From the sequence record NC_052652.1: a stretch of 64,000 nucleotides of DNA; one strand, 5' to 3'. This document shows, one piece after another, positions 2,455-63,616 of the stretch. The stretch is from Escherichia phage vB_EcoM_PHB05. A program made the translations under genes and the position numbers. The notes beneath the pieces were generated by a model. That model saw nothing but the letters and a program-made list of their open reading frames with translations, was not told the DNA's origin and searched no databases. Numbering within the stretch: the stretch's first letter is position 1; every line of letters starts with the position of its first letter.

Positions 2455-3006
2455 ATGAAAAAAGATGTTATTTACACTGGCTTTGAACTATATCAACCAG
2501 AATTGACAGAAGAAAATGTCATGTATCTTTCAATAGGTGCTGGTTTTCTTAAAGATAAAGATGGTAATGATTGGTACGAAATTCAGAAATATTTATCCAA
2601 AAATTACCCTGATGCCTATTTCTTAACTCTAGATCACAACAATGTAGTTGTTGCAGCTACGAAAGATGTTTCTACATATTTTCCCGCTGGTCTTACTGTT
2701 CTTGTAACATACAATGTTCCAGATAAGATAGAAGAAGAAAGCAACCTAGGATCGTGGAGATATGACAATGGTAAGTTTGTTTCTCATAATGGGTTTGCAA
2801 TAGAAGATGCCAACCTTAAAATGGAAAAAGAATTAACTTGGGCCACAAATCAAATATCTGCAATTCAAGATTTAGAGGAATTACAAGGTTTATCTGAAGA
2901 ACAAAAAGATTGGTTAGGAAAAGTTAAACTATATCGTGCAACACTGATTCAAATTAACGTTGAAGATGCACCTAATATAACTTGGCCTACAAGACCTAAG
3001 AAATAG
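2455..3006 (+). CDS. Tail fibre assembly chaperone (Tfa-like)
   Basis: C-terminal signature typical of the phage tail-fibre assembly family: ISAIQDLEELQGLSEEQKDWLGKVKLYRATLIQINVEDAPNITWPTRP; RBS AGGAG upstream. Confidence 0.65.
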   Translation: MKKDVIYTGFELYQPELTEENVMYLSIGAGFLKDKDGNDWYEIQKYLSKNYPDAYFLTLDHNNVVVAATKDVSTYFPAGLTVLVTYNVPDKIEEESNLGSWRYDNGKFVSHNGFAIEDANLKMEKELTWATNQISAIQDLEELQGLSEEQKDWLGKVKLYRATLIQINVEDAPNITWPTRPKK

Positions 3007-3015
3007 GGGTAATGT

Positions 3016-3357
3016 ATGGAGCTAACAGAAGTATGGGATATCGCTAAAGAGGCGATTATCCCTCTTATTGGTGTAATCTGGGTGGTCTTCAAACAGAAGA
3101 TAGATGATATAGCAAGTGATTTGGATAAAATGGAAGACAAATACCGTGAACTAGAAAAGAAGTTGGTGTTTGTTGAATCCACTTATGCTACCAAAGCAGA
3201 ACTTGCTCAAATGCTTAACCAGATCAACTCTACATTAATGGCAAATAATACTGCCTTAGAACAGAAAATTGAAAAAATAATGGATTTAAAAAATGCTCCT
3301 GTTCAATTAATGCTAGAGGAGATTACGAAGCGCACACAAAGTAAGGACAAAAATTAA
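3016..3357 (+). CDS. Hypothetical small protein with N-terminal hydrophobic helix and coiled coil, 113 aa
   Basis: IIPLIGVIWVVF hydrophobic segment then charged helical region; ATG overlaps next gene start (TAATG at 3357). Confidence 0.35.
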   Translation: MELTEVWDIAKEAIIPLIGVIWVVFKQKIDDIASDLDKMEDKYRELEKKLVFVESTYATKAELAQMLNQINSTLMANNTALEQKIEKIMDLKNAPVQLMLEEITKRTQSKDKN

Positions 3358-5811: not shown

Positions 5812-7782
5812 GTGATTTTAACACGTCCAAATAGTGCCATTGCAGACATGGTAGAGTCTCGCTATAGAAAGCGTAGAAGTTTTGCAAGTGGTTTTACCTT
5901 AAGAGATGCTCGTGAAGCATTGCTCTTTGAAGCTGACGGTAACTACTATCAGTGGAAAGGTTCTCTACCTAAAGTTGTACCTGCTAACTCTACTCCTACA
6001 TCCACTGGAGGGATTTCAGATACAGCTTGGAAAAATGTGGGTAATGCAGATGACATTGCTCAAATAGAATCAGAATTAGATGCTATTGAAGCTGAAATTG
6101 AAGATCTTAGAGAATCCATCCCAGAAGCTGGTAAATCAGCTTACCAGATTGCCGTAGACAATGGTTTCCAAGGTACTGAGACACAGTGGTTGGCTTCTTT
6201 AAAAGGTGATCCAGGTGCTCCATTAAAGCTATTAGGGACACTATCTAATACCAACCAATTACCTACAAGTGGAAACAATGCAGGGGATGCATGGATTGTA
6301 GGCGAGGATATGTATGCTTGGGATGGTACTGCTTGGAGAAAAGTAAACTCACAGGGGCCAGAAGGTAAATCTGCTTATGAAGTATGGCTTGCAGCAGGAA
6401 ATGAAGGTACAGAACTAGATTATCTTGCTTCAATTAAAGGTGATAAAGGGGAGCCTGGCCCAGAGGGGCCACAAGGTGTGCCAGGTAACAATGCTAATGG
6501 TTTTGATTACCAAGGCGCAGCTAATTCCGTTTCAGATCTTCCTTCTGCATCTCATGGAAACACATCTCAAGCATGGAGTGTTGGTACATATCTATACGTG
6601 TCAAACGGTGTAGAATGGATCAATATGGGCGCTATAGTGGGGCCAAAAGGAGATAAAGGCGACAAAGGAGATAAGGGTAACACTGGTGATTCAGCTTATC
6701 AAGTCTGGTTAAATGCTGGTAACGTTGGTACTATTGACGAATATATTGCCTCTCTGAAAGGAGAAAAAGGTGATAAGGGAGACAAGGGTGATCAAGGTGC
6801 ACAGGGTATACAAGGCTTGACGGGGCCAACTGGTGCAGGGTTGACCATTATTGACATTCTGACTAGCACTTCTGAACTGCCACAAACTGGGGAAGATGGT
6901 GATGGTTATCTGATCAATAATGAACTTTGGGTCTGGTTGCAAGGAGCCACAGAGTGGACAAATGTTGGTCGTTTAGCTGGTACTCCAATCACTGCAAAAG
7001 GACACGTTGCGTTTGCAAGTGCGCTTCCTCCTACAGCCAATTACGGTGATGCTTATCTGACGGAAGATACAGGTCATCTTTACATTTACACCTATAATGA
7101 ACAAACTCAAACTGCTGAATATGTAGATATGGGTAGTTTGAAAGGTGATAAGGGTGAAAAAGGTGAGAAAGGTGACGCTGGTACTAACGGTACAGACGGT
7201 GCAACTTGGATTGTTAAAACAACAGATCCAATCTCTAGTGATGGTAAACAAGGTGATTATGCCTTTAATATCTCCACTGGCGAAGTGTTCTTAAAAACAT
7301 CTGCAACTGTCTGGACTTCTCAAGGTACACTACCTAGTATCACAGATGCACCTAGTGATGGTAAGACTTATGCTCGTAAAGATGGGGCATGGGAAGAACT
7401 CACTAATTCTGTAGATGGTCAAGATATAGTTCCAACAAAAGTAACAACTAATTTTATAGAGGTTACAGCATATACCAATAATTCTGTTACAGGGGACTGG
7501 ACACCTCCAGGAACACATAACATGAATGTGTTGAATCTTACTGGTAACGCTACTATAAAAGCATGGCCTGGTGTCGAAGATAGTACAAAACCTAAACCAT
7601 TCTCTGCAATAGTTTATCTTATCCAAGATGCCACTGGAGGTCGTACTGTTACTTTAGATCCATCTTACAAAGTAATTGGTTCCAGTGATATTAATACAGA
7701 TCCTAACGGAGTAACAATACTACAACTAACATATTGTGGTGTTGGCGATTACGTGGATGCTATTGTTGCTAAACGCACATAA
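5812..7782 (+). CDS. Tail fibre protein with collagen-like Gly-X-Y repeats, 656 aa (GTG start)
   Basis: Four collagen-like runs, e.g. GDKGEPGPEGPQGVPG, GPKGDKGDKGDKGNTGD, GEKGDKGDKGDQGAQGIQGLTGPTGAG, GDKGEKGEKGDAGTNGTDG; RBS AAAGGAG 8 nt upstream. Confidence 0.6.
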   Translation: MILTRPNSAIADMVESRYRKRRSFASGFTLRDAREALLFEADGNYYQWKGSLPKVVPANSTPTSTGGISDTAWKNVGNADDIAQIESELDAIEAEIEDLRESIPEAGKSAYQIAVDNGFQGTETQWLASLKGDPGAPLKLLGTLSNTNQLPTSGNNAGDAWIVGEDMYAWDGTAWRKVNSQGPEGKSAYEVWLAAGNEGTELDYLASIKGDKGEPGPEGPQGVPGNNANGFDYQGAANSVSDLPSASHGNTSQAWSVGTYLYVSNGVEWINMGAIVGPKGDKGDKGDKGNTGDSAYQVWLNAGNVGTIDEYIASLKGEKGDKGDKGDQGAQGIQGLTGPTGAGLTIIDILTSTSELPQTGEDGDGYLINNELWVWLQGATEWTNVGRLAGTPITAKGHVAFASALPPTANYGDAYLTEDTGHLYIYTYNEQTQTAEYVDMGSLKGDKGEKGEKGDAGTNGTDGATWIVKTTDPISSDGKQGDYAFNISTGEVFLKTSATVWTSQGTLPSITDAPSDGKTYARKDGAWEELTNSVDGQDIVPTKVTTNFIEVTAYTNNSVTGDWTPPGTHNMNVLNLTGNATIKAWPGVEDSTKPKPFSAIVYLIQDATGGRTVTLDPSYKVIGSSDINTDPNGVTILQLTYCGVGDYVDAIVAKRT

Positions 7783-46342: not shown

Positions 46343-46517
46343 AGTCTACTCCTTGGCGTACAAAGTTAACTTCTGCTTCTTTCAGCTTTGACACTTCTAC
46401 ATAACCACCATGATCATCTTTAATCCATTCTTTTCCTTTACGGATGATAACAGGATACGTAGAGTGAGTAAGTTTAGGTACAGATCTTTTTGTTTTAGTG
46501 ATAGAAATGTTTTGCAT
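46335..46517 (-). CDS. Hypothetical small protein, 60 aa
   Basis: Track ORF. Confidence 0.3.
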   Translation of the reverse strand: MQNISITKTKRSVPKLTHSTYPVIIRKGKEWIKDDHGGYVEVSKLKEAEVNFVRQGVDYD

Positions 46518-46577
46518 AGTAGTCTCCTTAGTAAATTTTACATAGAGTCTAGATTATTTAGTAGGTAAAGTCAATAA

Positions 46578-46844
46578 TTAATTACTGTTAGATCTGTATT
46601 CTGTCTTCCATTCGCAATGGTAAACTTCAACAGGTTCTAACTTCCAGTGTTCAGGAACTAATTCAGGGCAATATCTACAAAAGAGAAATAGATAGATAAT
46701 TAAGACAGGTATTAAATAGTAAAATGGTATACGATCATAACCATACTTACGAGATAACATGTAGACATATAGATAGGGTATAACAATTAAACCTATAACT
46801 ATAAGTAAGAAGAGAAGTATAAACCTCAGTGTAGTAACATCCAT
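46578..46844 (-). CDS. Small membrane protein (two TM helices), 88 aa
   Basis: LRFILLFLLIVIGLIVIPYLYVYML and IPVLIIYLFLFC hydrophobic helices. Confidence 0.35.
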   Translation of the reverse strand: MDVTTLRFILLFLLIVIGLIVIPYLYVYMLSRKYGYDRIPFYYLIPVLIIYLFLFCRYCPELVPEHWKLEPVEVYHCEWKTEYRSNSN

Positions 46845-47008
46845 AGTATTCTCCTATACAGTAATATACTCTGTTCCTGCCCCTCCATGAGTGACAGGAA
46901 CAATATCTATAGAGAATACTAACTCGCTTCGCTCGTCACCTTTCAGGTTTAGGGTAGCATGTTTTTCTGAAAAAGTCAATACTCTCCACAAAACTTTACA
47001 AAATGTTT

Positions 47009-48189: not shown

Positions 48190-48369
48190 TTATTTTTGTA
48201 GATCATTTCTTCTTTCCTTTTTGATTACAGCCCCATCACTCCCTTGCCAAACTTCCGATCTGAATTCCATCTCAAACCACTCACCACCGCAAAAACGGCT
48301 ATGTTCAACACGTCTATCTTCCTTCATTGCTTCTTTAGCTTCGATAGAAGTTAGTTCGATGTTTTGCAT
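48190..48369 (-). CDS. Hypothetical small protein, about 59 aa (first gene of the leftward block)
   Basis: Track ORF 48190..48543 trimmed to internal Met (MQNIELTS) with RBS AAAGGAG. Confidence 0.25.
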   Translation of the reverse strand: MQNIELTSIEAKEAMKEDRRVEHSRFCGGEWFEMEFRSEVWQGSDGAVIKKERRNDLQK

Positions 48370-48487
48370 TTGTTTTTCTCCTTTCATTTGGTGTGCGTTA
48401 ATCTTAACAAAATAAAAATGTATGTCAATACTTGATTTGAAATTAGTTTCTGGTACTCTGTGTGTATCGTAACAAAAGAGGTTAGAT

Positions 48488-48778
48488 ATGAACATCACAC
48501 TAGCAACTAAGAATATTACAGAAACTTTCGATGGTTTTGGCATTATTATTGCTGTTCATGGACATAACGAAAAATGGTTAGCCTCTTTTGAAGAGGACAA
48601 AGAACGCAATGTACGTTTGAATGCACCAATCAAAGTTTTACACCAGGTAGGTGAGAATAAGAAACAATGGAGATCATACAAAGAGTGGAACATTACAAAC
48701 GAATTAATACACAAACTTGACAAAGTGATAAACATGTTCGACAATGCACCAAGCAGTGCAAAACGTGTTTTACTATAA
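48488..48778 (+). CDS. Hypothetical protein, 96 aa
   Basis: Track ORF; first gene of rightward block. Confidence 0.4.
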   Translation: MNITLATKNITETFDGFGIIIAVHGHNEKWLASFEEDKERNVRLNAPIKVLHQVGENKKQWRSYKEWNITNELIHKLDKVINMFDNAPSSAKRVLL

Positions 48779-52863: not shown

Positions 52864-53415
52864 ATGCGGATTACTGATAAGTATGTGTTCTTCTTCTCGG
52901 CAAAAGATGAATTTAGCAACTGGTATCTATCATCTTTTATTGAACCTTTAGCACCCAAGTATAATAATTCTATTACAAGTTCTGTTGAATTTACTTGTGT
53001 GGAACAATATATGATGTGGAGAAAAGCATGTTTGTTTTATGATTACAGTATTGCATCTTCTATTTTAACCGGAGATCTAAGATATACAGGAGAAAAAGAA
53101 CAAGCATATTATAAACGACTAGGCAGATTAGTTAAAGATTATGATGAAGATACCTGGGCTTCTTTACGGGAGAAGATTGTCAAGCGTGGTTTGTATCTTA
53201 AATACACACAAAATGAAGATCTCAAAAATAAACTTATCGCTTACGCAGATAAGGAGTTCGTAGAGGCAAGCCCCTATGATTCTATTTATGGTATCAAAAT
53301 GGGGATGTGGGATCGGGACGTGGAAAATAAGGATTGTTGGAAAGGACAAAATCTTTTAGGAAAATGGCATACAGACCTTGCTGTTTATCTAAAATCACAA
53401 TCTGATATTTCCTGA
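52864..53415 (+). CDS. NADAR-domain protein (YbiA-like), 183 aa
   Basis: Motif FFFSAKDEFSNWYLSSF ... FTCVEQYMMWRKACLFYD matches the NADAR/DUF1768 signature (FF..SNW...F.S.EQ.mM..KA..F.D). Confidence 0.6.
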   Translation: MRITDKYVFFFSAKDEFSNWYLSSFIEPLAPKYNNSITSSVEFTCVEQYMMWRKACLFYDYSIASSILTGDLRYTGEKEQAYYKRLGRLVKDYDEDTWASLREKIVKRGLYLKYTQNEDLKNKLIAYADKEFVEASPYDSIYGIKMGMWDRDVENKDCWKGQNLLGKWHTDLAVYLKSQSDIS

Positions 53416-53631
53416 TATTTTGAAAATTTTTATTTTTATAAAAAGGGGTGTGGGTTTCATGTACGGAAATCCACCCTCTGAATAATATATCCAGAGTAAG
53501 TAGTATTCTATACCCTGTTAATAAAGTATTTAATTTGTTTGTTGGACTATGGTATCTGATCTTTAAAAGGCATACTATCTCTTAACTACTACTTATAACA
53601 GAACAGTAAAATCATTTTTATAAAAAGTACA

Positions 53632-53845
53632 AAATTATTTAAAGTTTTTACAGATTTTTGGATACAAATTTTGAAAATGAAAAGTTCAAGTTTGGTCAAA
53701 ATTATTTAAAGTTTTTGTACGTATTTCTATCCAGATTTTGAAAATGAAAACTTCAATTTTTTAAAAATTCCCCAGTTTATTTAAAGTTTTTTTGCCTTTT
53801 TCCGTAGAAAAATCAAAAATGAAAAGTTCAATTTCGTGTTTTTAT
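53632..53845. repeat. Three tandem direct repeats of about 68 bp (core ATTATTTAAAGTTTTT ... ATTTTGAAAATGAAAAGTTCAA)
   Basis: Core strings TATTTAAAGTTTTT and TTTTGAAAATGAAAAGTTCAA each recur three times at about 68-bp spacing. Confidence 0.6.
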
Positions 53846-53857
53846 GGGTATGCGTAT

Positions 53858-53975
53858 GATAATCATTCTCATTTGTAAATGAGAATCATTATCATTTAAT
53901 TATGTAAATGATAAGCATTCTCACTAAGAGAATGAGAATCATTAGCAAATGAGAATTTTTCTCATTTAGAGAATA
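53858..53975. promoter_or_regulatory. Array of Fur-box-like palindromes (AATGAGAAT C ATTCTCATT and GATAATCATT units)
   Basis: TGATAATCATTCTCATTTGTAAATGAGAATCATTATCATTT... contains several overlapping near-matches to the enterobacterial Fur box GATAATGATAATCATTATC. Confidence 0.45.
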
Positions 53976-54228
53976 ACGCGCAGGGGCGGTGTTTGTCTCG
54001 CGCTCCCGTGTCCCCTCGCCATACAATAAGAATAGCATAACCAACAACAAAAGCAAGCGATTATTTTTATCTTTACATTTCTTTACAAATTTATTTTGGA
54101 CGAGCTACCGGCGATCAACCTTCCAACCAGTGCCCCCTGGTATGTTAGCCCCGCCTTTACGCCGTGGGGGTGGCGTTTCCTCTTCTGTATGTAAAACAGT
54201 ATAAGCCCGATCCCTGGGCTTGTCAAGA

Positions 54229-54495
54229 TTATTTTTTGTTTTCTTGCCAGGAAAGGACACCTAACCAAAAATACATATCGCCCCGCGCCCCTGGCGGGAT
54301 CTTGCTTTCCCCGCCGCCACTGCAAGCCCATAAATAACCATTTACGAACGTATCAAAGTGATCTATCTCTTCCACCTTATGATCGCCCAGGTTGAGAACG
54401 GTTTCAACCTTTAAGCCCGTTGCGCTTGCTACCTGGTGCACCGTGCCGCCTTGCCAGCCCAATGAGTGCATGAGATGTAAAGGAGTATTTGTCAT
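54229..54495 (-). CDS. Early-block small protein (leftward gene of divergent promoter pair), 88 aa
   Basis: Track ORF; preceded on the - strand by a TTGCTA-17-TATTAT promoter, a GC stem-loop and AGAAAGGG RBS, the same cassette layout as the + strand early genes. Confidence 0.4.
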   Translation of the reverse strand: MTNTPLHLMHSLGWQGGTVHQVASATGLKVETVLNLGDHKVEEIDHFDTFVNGYLWACSGGGESKIPPGARGDMYFWLGVLSWQENKK

Positions 54496-54516
54496 GGTAT
54501 CGCCCTTTCTTTGATG

Positions 54517-54575
54517 TGCGCCCTGGTTGGCGCGGTAGAAAGATAATAGCCGTTTCCTTTATAGATAGCAAGCAA
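54517..54575 (-). promoter_or_regulatory. Leftward early promoter (TTGCTA -17- TATTAT) plus leader stem-loop (GCGCC AACCAG GGCGC)
   Basis: Read on the - strand; mirrors the + strand cassette architecture. Confidence 0.45.
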
Positions 54576-54605
54576 AAAAGAAATGAAAAAAAGATTAAAA
54601 AAATG

Positions 54606-54658
54606 GTTGACGTTCCTCACCTGGTAGCGTAGTATTCATCTTGTCGAGGGGGCAATAG
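54606..54658 (+). promoter_or_regulatory. Rightward early promoter (TTGACG -17- TAGTAT) plus leader hairpin (GGCA ATAG TGCC)
   Basis: Divergent from the previous promoter; followed by RBS and ATG at 54689. Confidence 0.5.
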
Positions 54659-54688
54659 TGCCGCTCATAACAGAAGAGAGAAATAATC

Positions 54689-54961
54689 ATGGCATCATAT
54701 AGCGCATCAATGATCGTAATGGGTATCACTGGTAAACCTATGCGCGGTGGCGGATCTTTCGCTAATATTAATATTGATGGGCGTTTATCCCTGGATGCAG
54801 CGATCACAGTGGCACGGGAAACATTTAAAAAAGAATGTAATTTCAATAAACAAGATTATCTCGGTTTCGCTATTGAAAAAACCGCGCGCTTTGTGGATTA
54901 TAAAAGCCCGAAAATGATTGATACTACACTAAAAGCGCAAGATGTAGCGTTTTTGCTTTAA
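54689..54961 (+). CDS. Early small protein, 90 aa
   Basis: Track ORF with promoter and RBS. Confidence 0.45.
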   Translation: MASYSASMIVMGITGKPMRGGGSFANINIDGRLSLDAAITVARETFKKECNFNKQDYLGFAIEKTARFVDYKSPKMIDTTLKAQDVAFLL

Positions 54962-62653: not shown

Positions 62654-63189
62654 ATTCTTTTTTCACGATGGAAACAACACGTAAAAAATAGGCGTAAAGG
62701 TGGCGTAAAACCATCTAAAACCGACTGTAACCGCTTAAACAGGGTAACAATGAGTAATCACCTTACCAGGATGAAAAAGCTGTTATAAAGCTATTTAGAG
62801 CGTTTAAAGCACACAGGAAATAATTTGCTTTTTATCTTGCCTTTTATTCTGCTTTTGATTATTATTATGGAACGGGCGGCACCTGGGGACAGGGGAAGAT
62901 AATCACCGGAAGATCCCGCTATATATTGATAGCTTCTACCTATTAAACAACAAAACATCAAAGAAATAAACTATCAAATCTTTTTACCTAAATAAAGATG
63001 ATAACTTTTACCTATCAAAAACGTTCACCGAAAAAAGTGAATAGATCGCGGTATTGAGCTAATCAAGGAGCAGATGAATAACCATACCATGAAGATCATA
63101 AGGCGCTTACAGCGTGTTTTAGACCGCTTATTTTTAATTTCTTCATGCAACTATCTGGCAAAAACAGCCTTTTTCTTGTCTTTCCTCTT

Positions 63190-63260
63190 AAATAATAATC
63201 ATTCTCATTTATAGCTGATTATTTATGCAATAAACTGAATAATATAATAATGATAATCAT
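63190..63260. promoter_or_regulatory. Second Fur-box-like element (AATAATAATCATTCTCATTT ... AATGATAATCATTCTT)
   Basis: Same TAATCATTCTCATT core as at 53862; lies on the far side of the early block. Confidence 0.4.
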
Positions 63261-63616
63261 TCTTAACTTAAGGCCATCTAACCTATAAAATAATAAGCTA
63301 TCTAACTAAATTAAAGCTAATTATCTCACCTTTATTTATAACTTACTGTTATTATCTCATTGATAACCTTATATTAAACAACAATAACTAATATAAATCA
63401 TTACCAAACTAAATATAATCTATCTAACCTTTAAAACTATAACTATAATCTATCGAATTGTTGCACAAAGTAACTATTAAATTGTTAGTAACATTACTAA
63501 ATAATTAATATCCTATCTATTTATGATCTAATCTTTACCTTACTATCTATTACCTAAATAATCATTTCATACAATAATTATAACAAGAAATATAATTAGC
63601 AAGCGTATCATTAGCA

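Follow-up and report, generated by a model that had tools for sequence, protein, structure and literature searches.

Replication origins of the iteron type, such as lambda ori, P1 oriR, the pSC101 origin and T4 oriE with its primer transcript, are built on several direct repeats of a motif unique to the replicon, accompanied by a neighboring AT-rich stretch that melts, by sites for host factors and by transcription that enters from a nearby promoter; among related replicons the sequence of the repeat differs and the architecture is kept. The F-plasmid sopC-type centromeres consist of long-period tandem units in which short internal boxes are recognized and assembled into a higher-order nucleoprotein complex. 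The array of three direct repeats considered here, at positions 53631-53845 of a stretch of 64,000 nucleotides from Escherichia phage vB_EcoM_PHB05 (sequence record NC_052652.1; the whole stretch is called the window below), is like the iteron origins in all of the features just listed and like the sopC-type centromeres in having long-period units (tens of bp) with short boxes. It also resembles "Repeat Region 3" of phage T5 (Davison, bioRxiv 10.1101/866236): both are parts of a large conserved non-coding region about 8% from a genome end, with direct repeats (in T5 tandem units of about 65-66 bp), short iterons, palindromes and Fur-box-like arrays that match by BLAST, and the repeat sequences themselves are unrelated. 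We suggest, tentatively, that the three units are the iteron array of an essential cis-acting element, which is most likely a replication origin.

The repeats lie where the preliminary description of this DNA had placed them, in three direct copies, and are as AT-rich and intergenic as it had stated (guanine-plus-cytosine (GC) fraction 0.21 over 53631-53845; no open reading frame (ORF) of at least 40 aa across 53586-53891). Its 68-bp period gives way to measured spacings of 67 and 75 bp. A repeat search returned 3 in-register copies starting at 53614, 53681 and 53756, the later two with 72% and 71% identity to the first, and Tandem Repeats Finder reported a period of 67 with 2.0 copies (score 185, 53630-53760), missing the third copy because the second spacing is 75. 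Every unit has the same layout, running from box A through about 22 variable nt to box B and ending in a linker:

53631-53697: repeat unit 1, with box A at 53635-53649 (TTATTTAAAGTTTTT), a 22-nt variable spacer and box B at 53672-53689 (TGAAAATGAAAAGTTCAA)
53698-53772: repeat unit 2, with box A at 53702-53716, box B at 53739-53756 (1 mismatch) and then a conserved linker, TTTTTTAAAAATTCCCCAG
53773-53845: repeat unit 3, with box A at 53777-53791, box B at 53814-53831 (2 mismatches) and then a conserved TTTTTATGGGTAT motif

Box A is thus exact in all three units and box B in the first alone, so that of the two strings that had been described as recurring three times only the former does so without change. 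From the start of box A to that of box B there are exactly 37 nt in 3/3 units, and box B, for which 0.26 matches are expected by chance in the window, reached three matches in 0 of 100 shuffles. Neither box has a further copy in the window or among the other ~84 kb of a Justusliebigvirus genome, a uniqueness that excludes a dispersed phage promoter or terminator motif. A CRISPR-like array was likewise rejected, the repeat being bipartite, the ~22-nt "spacers" nearly identical in six genomes and cas-like genes absent nearby. A resemblance of box B to degenerate Fur hexamers, seen at 9/12 in this genus and not in others and judged by eye, was dropped. Sigma-70 promoters are not part of the units: neither strand of this iteron type or of the others has a -35/-10 pair at 16-18 bp, and the promoter scan gave a single 9/12 match, on the minus strand of unit 2, with none in units 1 and 3. 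The repeats correspond to no Rfam family and no tRNA, and A-tract phasing or curvature is not significant (p 0.05-0.15).

Over the ~2.4 kb around the array, many Escherichia phages of the genus Justusliebigvirus (phi92-like, Stephanstirmvirinae) show 96-98% identity to the window, which itself belongs to such a phi92-like phage, with a whole genome of ~148 kb. Six Justusliebigvirus genomes always have three units, and all four of their variable positions fall in the spacers; copy number does not vary within the genus, apparent two-piece BLAST hits being off-diagonal joins. In an alignment of the window with Phapecoctavirus ESCO13, Citrobacter Tr1 and Klebsiella phi1_175008, representing three genera, box A and the box B core are (nearly) invariant and the spacers have diverged. 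Far from being absent or unconserved in relatives, three units stand at the same place in ten or more genera of the Stephanstirmvirinae and Vequintavirinae, mostly ~63-78 bp apart; the exceptions among the genera examined are Klebsiella 05F01, with two clear units, and the W70-like phages, with four at irregular spacing. The spacings, in bp from unit to unit, are:

67/75 in the window, 67/76 in Citrobacter Tr1 and 67/75 in Klebsiella phi1_175008
74-75/67 in Av-05-like contigs, KpS8 and SSE121
76/69 in Erwinia Hena1, 78/63 in Certrevirus and 65/52 in rV5-like phages

Across the lineages this geometry is occupied by three unrelated box types, TTATTTAAAG..., GGTTCTCGATCG...ATCGTATTT and GGAGACTTGAGAGGTTTTTC.... 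In other genera of the Stephanstirmvirinae box B is AAATTTAAAGTTT, and the array is there effectively one of six TTTAAAG-type cores, alternating ~45 and 22-30 bp apart. The comparison shows boxes under purifying selection while the spacers drift, and a box sequence that was replaced at least twice. Phages that share E. coli as host bear different box types, which argues for a phage-encoded reader, and the neighboring Fur-like boxes are the same everywhere, which argues there for a host reader, presumably Fur. The simplest reading of these patterns is that the units would be recognized by a phage-encoded protein whose specificity drifted along with its sites, the classical behavior of iterons. 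The label "iteron-like" that had been given to the repeats is therefore well chosen, the boxes being unique, conserved against variable spacers, and replaced at approximately the same three-unit geometry. A scan of IMG/VR with a loose three-box pattern returned mostly chance matches in AT-rich giant viruses and was discarded. Records MG065639, MG065645, MG065656, MG065689 and others, entered as "Campylobacter phage" with Campylobacter jejuni as the stated host, are ~97% identical across the region; the host labels on these records are probably wrong.

The array belongs to a conserved non-coding module of ~0.8 kb, present throughout the Stephanstirmvirinae and Vequintavirinae, in which two TGATATTT motifs, an AT-rich spacer, the three units, Fur-like palindromes, a GC-rich element and a leftward promoter-like site follow one another from left to right. 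Besides the units, its features in the window are:

53402-53420, plus strand: tandem TGATATTT motif in two copies, the left edge of the module in all lineages, found also at the inner end of the phi92 terminal repeat
53442-53480: AAAGGGGTGTG motif with a weak hairpin
53481-53630: AT-rich spacer, poorly conserved, GC 0.25
53852-53968: 4-5 Fur-box-like 19-bp palindromes with the core AATGAGAATCATTCTCATT, present in every lineage whatever its iteron type
53975-54190: GC-rich (0.48), highly conserved non-coding element, matched by 351 phage records
about 54140-54176, plus strand: terminator-like hairpin within the GC-rich element, with conserved G-U pairs
54198-54226, minus strand: sigma-70 promoter-like site, TTGACA-17-TATACT (11/12), pointing toward the Fur array and the repeats
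54229-54495, minus strand: 88-aa ORF bordering the module, phi92 gp224 (phrog_19316, function unknown), missing from rV5-like phages

The Fur-box-like array directly downstream of the repeats, already mentioned in the preliminary description, is real: with up to 3 mismatches allowed, the Fur consensus is matched 4 times in the window (0.08 expected), and 53875 and 53928 are two of the sites. The phi92-type genome has just three clusters of near-consensus Fur boxes, one next to the repeats, one ~1.1 kb short of the right end and one within the 343-bp terminal repeat (window 63191-63264; phi92 48343-48559 in the terminal repeat, in coordinates of the record piece). The same boxes form arrays in the non-coding injection-stop region of T5-like phages (Gostya9 2960-3240) and also occur in the terminal repeat of the Klebsiella jumbo phage Muenster; the preprint on the T5 injection-stop region makes no mention of Fur (bioRxiv 10.1101/866236).

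At the other side of the Fur boxes, the leftward promoter-like site scores 12/12 in an Av-05-like relative. Its spacer is a conserved hairpin with compensatory sequence changes between lineages, and this hairpin looks like the terminator of the 88-aa gene immediately upstream, so that terminator and promoter appear to overlap. A possible plus-strand promoter overlapped by Fur boxes has its -10-like GAGAAT at 53969-53974, left of the GC-rich element. Together with the sites around it (53975-54226), that element may represent a small RNA under iron control and an antisense partner to it, strand and ends being tentative; its RNA shows little covariation on either strand and folds on the plus strand no better than shuffles (z +0.7). 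A leftward terminator at 53445-53480 was rejected, the hairpin being weak and the U-run displaced.

The duplex of 53515-53914 is the second least stable of its length (400 bp) in the 64 kb, at about +3.7 standard deviations and with GC of 0.21-0.25; the region checked for origin signals contains one GATC. The least stable stretch, 63181-63597 (GC 0.17-0.21), belongs to the non-coding right-terminal region and has short repeats of its own, and a further AT-rich stretch of low stability, 46410-46870, is gene-poor and lies near the switch from leftward to rightward genes.

A published transposon screen of the rV5-like phage Bas54 by HIDEN-SEQ offers a functional view of the homologous module, over which three mini-ORFs had been scored as genes (bioRxiv 10.1101/2025.11.20.689424, Extended Data Table 8). 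In that screen bas54_0100, which covers the repeat units, was hit at 1/3 TA sites with ~5 reads against ~200 in neighbor genes; bas54_0101, covering the last part of unit 3 and the spacer that leads to the Fur boxes, at 0/11 sites ("Essential"); and bas54_0102, covering a Fur box and the GC element, at 5/15 sites ("Strong fitness defect"). The flanking genes 0096-0099 and 0104-0109 were non-essential with 86-100% of sites hit, 0095 being scored "Reduced fitness" and 0103 "Intermediate" (12/14) (bioRxiv 10.1101/2025.11.20.689424). As the mini-ORFs have no counterpart ORFs in the window, the intolerance to insertion most likely reflects the non-coding element itself, and polar effects cannot account for it because the genes downstream are dispensable. 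The 2-kb intergenic region of Bas54 without insertions that is named in the HIDEN-SEQ text is the terminal-repeat region and not this module.

Taken with these data, the three units are most likely docking sites for a predicted phage DNA-binding protein. Of the roles that the preliminary description had proposed, replication origin and array of regulator sites are both possible, and it is the low duplex stability together with the insertion intolerance of the Bas54 module that favors the former. An internal, essential non-coding element that combines unique iterons, host-factor sites, low stability and an inward-facing promoter best fits an origin, and we count as further support that the physical termini, the other obligatory cis element, are situated elsewhere. 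Under this proposal the phage protein would oligomerize on the three bipartite units with Fur bound alongside, the resulting nucleoprotein complex would melt the AT-rich DNA, and transcription from the leftward sigma-70 promoter into the complex would activate or prime it, so that the element would serve as the phage's origin of DNA replication.

Several observations weigh against an origin. Consensus DnaA boxes and IHF sites were not found in 53300-54700, and GC skew does not change sign at the locus, though transcription bias may mask such a change. Classical iterons have shorter periods than the 67-75 bp seen here. A cognate initiator was not identified: the AAA+ ATPase closest to the array, two genes upstream, gives weak PHROG hits of DnaC or clamp-loader type, and gp224 matches nothing informative. 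The origins of T5 were mapped outside the T5 region in which the Fur-like arrays are shared (bioRxiv 10.1101/866236). The Bas54 data come from a different genus, are gene-level, combine effects in cis and in trans and include 3 TA sites in the repeat units; the essentiality seen there could stem from an essential RNA or from real micro-ORFs instead of a DNA site. The case for an origin is one from sequence and from the homologue's insertion data.

The position of the array bears on the other roles that might be envisaged for it. Its phi92 equivalent lies at 136,770-136,967 of a 148,612-bp genome, in whose record a right terminal repeat of 343 bp is entered at 148,270-148,612, so that the array is ~11.6-11.8 kb, or 7.8-8.0% of the genome, inward of the right physical end; in BME3 a direct terminal repeat of 342 bp has been reported (PMC12210895), and for rV5-like phages the terminal-repeat region is located by long reads ~11-12 kb rightward of the module's homologue (bioRxiv 10.1101/2025.04.16.649189). 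The packaging site that had also been suggested is unlikely for this reason. Phased repeats are typical of the sites of terminase small subunits, and several GenBank records begin 0.1-2.5 kb from the array, which would suit a pac or cos site recognized by terminase; record starts in databases are, however, mostly arbitrary, and with the 342-343-bp terminal repeats of phi92 and BME3 experimentally assigned ~11.7 kb away we regard such a site as highly improbable. The termini and the module nevertheless have motifs in common. TGATATT-N(21-24)-AAAGGGGTGTG occurs at this locus and at only two more, just inside the left genome end (window 53402-53452; Justusliebigvirus alia 2565-2781, in coordinates of the record piece). 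The homologous module of Certrevirus CB7 starts with a sequence similar to TGATATTTGAGGGGGACGG, which phi92 has where its terminal repeat ends inward (48565-48612 of the record piece). Both findings suggest that module and genome termini are linked in evolution or in function.

This raises the further possibility, which we consider distinctly unlikely, that the array is an architectural element of genome entry or of the termini, at which a complex would pause or organize the incoming DNA once its first ~8%, the early-gene block, is inside, or would pair the site with the ends that bear Fur boxes. The distance of the array from the phi92 right end is close to the 7.9% of the genome that T5 transfers in its first step; the T5 non-coding region with the injection stop signal likewise has a 65-bp tandem repeat and short iterons (bioRxiv 10.1101/866236), and it is there that T5-like phages carry their Fur-like arrays. 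In phi92 the only other Fur-like boxes are those near and within the right terminal repeat, and TGATATTT and AAAGGGGTGTG have their only other copies at the terminal repeat and the left end. Against this, the terminal repeat has 343 bp, unlike a repeat of 10 kb that would enclose the block, the paired DnaA boxes on which the T5 model depends are absent here, the similarity to T5 is confined to the Fur-like boxes, and the agreement at 8% may be coincidence. To our knowledge two-step DNA entry has not been described for these myoviruses.

A role in transcription would make the units operator- or enhancer-like sites for a phage regulator acting at this boundary, on the Fur-overlapped promoter-like site into the GC-rich element, on the leftward promoter or on the switch from early to middle expression in the right-terminal block; what is essential would in that case be an RNA or the timing of expression, and not replication. 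We see this as possible, if rather unlikely. It would account for the location of the array directly upstream of the Fur boxes and for a conserved promoter-like set consisting of a -35-like hexamer (TTGAAT in many lineages), an 18-bp spacer and nAGAAT, with the last Fur box between the hexamers. This promoter is called in an Av-05-like relative, its -10-like AGAAT is conserved in most lineages, and on the plus strand a terminator-like hairpin follows ~200 nt on, with conserved G-U pairs that favor that strand. Conserved sigma-70 promoters, divergent and convergent, flank the module, lineage-specific boxes would suit a phage-specific regulator, and the arrangement hints at a Fur-repressed small RNA that might be opposed by the leftward promoter. 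However, the window's own -35 is poor (GCAAAT) and the promoter scan makes no call there, plus-strand folding and covariation give the RNA no support, and the units precede the putative start by 130-350 bp, a long way for sigma-70 control. Moreover, insertions into Bas54 are tolerated least between unit 3 and the Fur boxes and not in the RNA body, and since the downstream genes are all dispensable, lost regulation should not kill. We think it improbable that the repeats act instead as RNA motifs of a long leftward non-coding transcript from the promoter at 54226-54198 through the Fur array. A strong conserved promoter does aim into the region, and the 343-nt RNA of the minus strand is more stably folded than its shuffles (z -4.6), an effect of the Fur palindromes; yet there is no convincing terminator past the repeats, the units have no stable stems or Rfam match, and bipartite boxes at fixed spacing are more typical of DNA sites. 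Finally, it is conceivable, though doubtful, that the repeats are the phage-specific half of a composite essential switch, in which Fur, as a readout of iron, and the iteron-binding protein would together gate replication initiation or the early-to-middle transition by a logic common to the T5 injection-stop region.

Left of the array, whichever of these roles it has, are the genes of gp221-223 (an AAA ATPase, an endonuclease and a NADAR protein), and to its right a block of ~24 small rightward genes reaches the genome end. These are presumably early genes, with the module at the inner border of their block. The adjoining gp224 was rejected as a recognizable DNA-binding protein, Pfam and PDB giving no support, and host-derived DNA was rejected after zero matches among 5,426 E. 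coli genomes. Elsewhere in the window, runs of 9-bp and 18-bp tandem repeats (GGAGACAAG, AAAGGTGAA) at 6646-7175 lie inside a 656-aa ORF and are compatible with collagen-like Gly-X-Y repeats of a tail-fibre-type protein.

The phi92-like and rV5-like phages are common in therapy cocktails and model collections. By the published transposon data the module is one of very few insertion-intolerant non-coding stretches in Bas54, and it may thereby point genome engineers to a region that should be left intact. The identity of the reader protein would be a handle on the start of replication or on a programme switch in these phages, and the array raises the question of whether virulent phages recruit the host's Fur. 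If the composite switch were true, several large virulent enterobacterial phage families would rely on Fur at a central point of non-coding control, perhaps for staged genome entry as well.

How far the locus departs from the known systems with which we began can now be stated. The comparison with classical origins is one with general knowledge: their units have ~20 bp, whereas here two boxes recur at a period of 67-75 bp, and Fur-like sites take the place of DnaA and IHF sites; they also have an initiator gene and a mapped initiation, whereas the array is known from its sequence. The sopC-type centromeres differ in that only three units are present here and ParA/ParB-like genes were not seen nearby; we know of no need for partition in a virulent phage. 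In T5 the repeat region is at the inner end of a 10-kb terminal repeat and has paired DnaA boxes, in place of which there are here a 343-bp repeat and none. The T7 early promoters A1, A2 and A3 are alike as three tandem AT-rich units near the early-gene block of a virulent coliphage; the array units, in contrast, have no -35/-10 pair in any lineage and are upstream of a convergent region, not of genes. Iteron-like arrays are already a known kind, and the present one is unannotated save for bare features, the GenBank records of phages inny, alia and muut having an uncommented "repeat_region" at it. For three of its traits we found no published description, namely the long-period bipartite units, the fixed three-unit geometry filled with swapped sequences, and the partnership with Fur boxes in virulent phages, and it is by these that the array stands apart from the systems it resembles.
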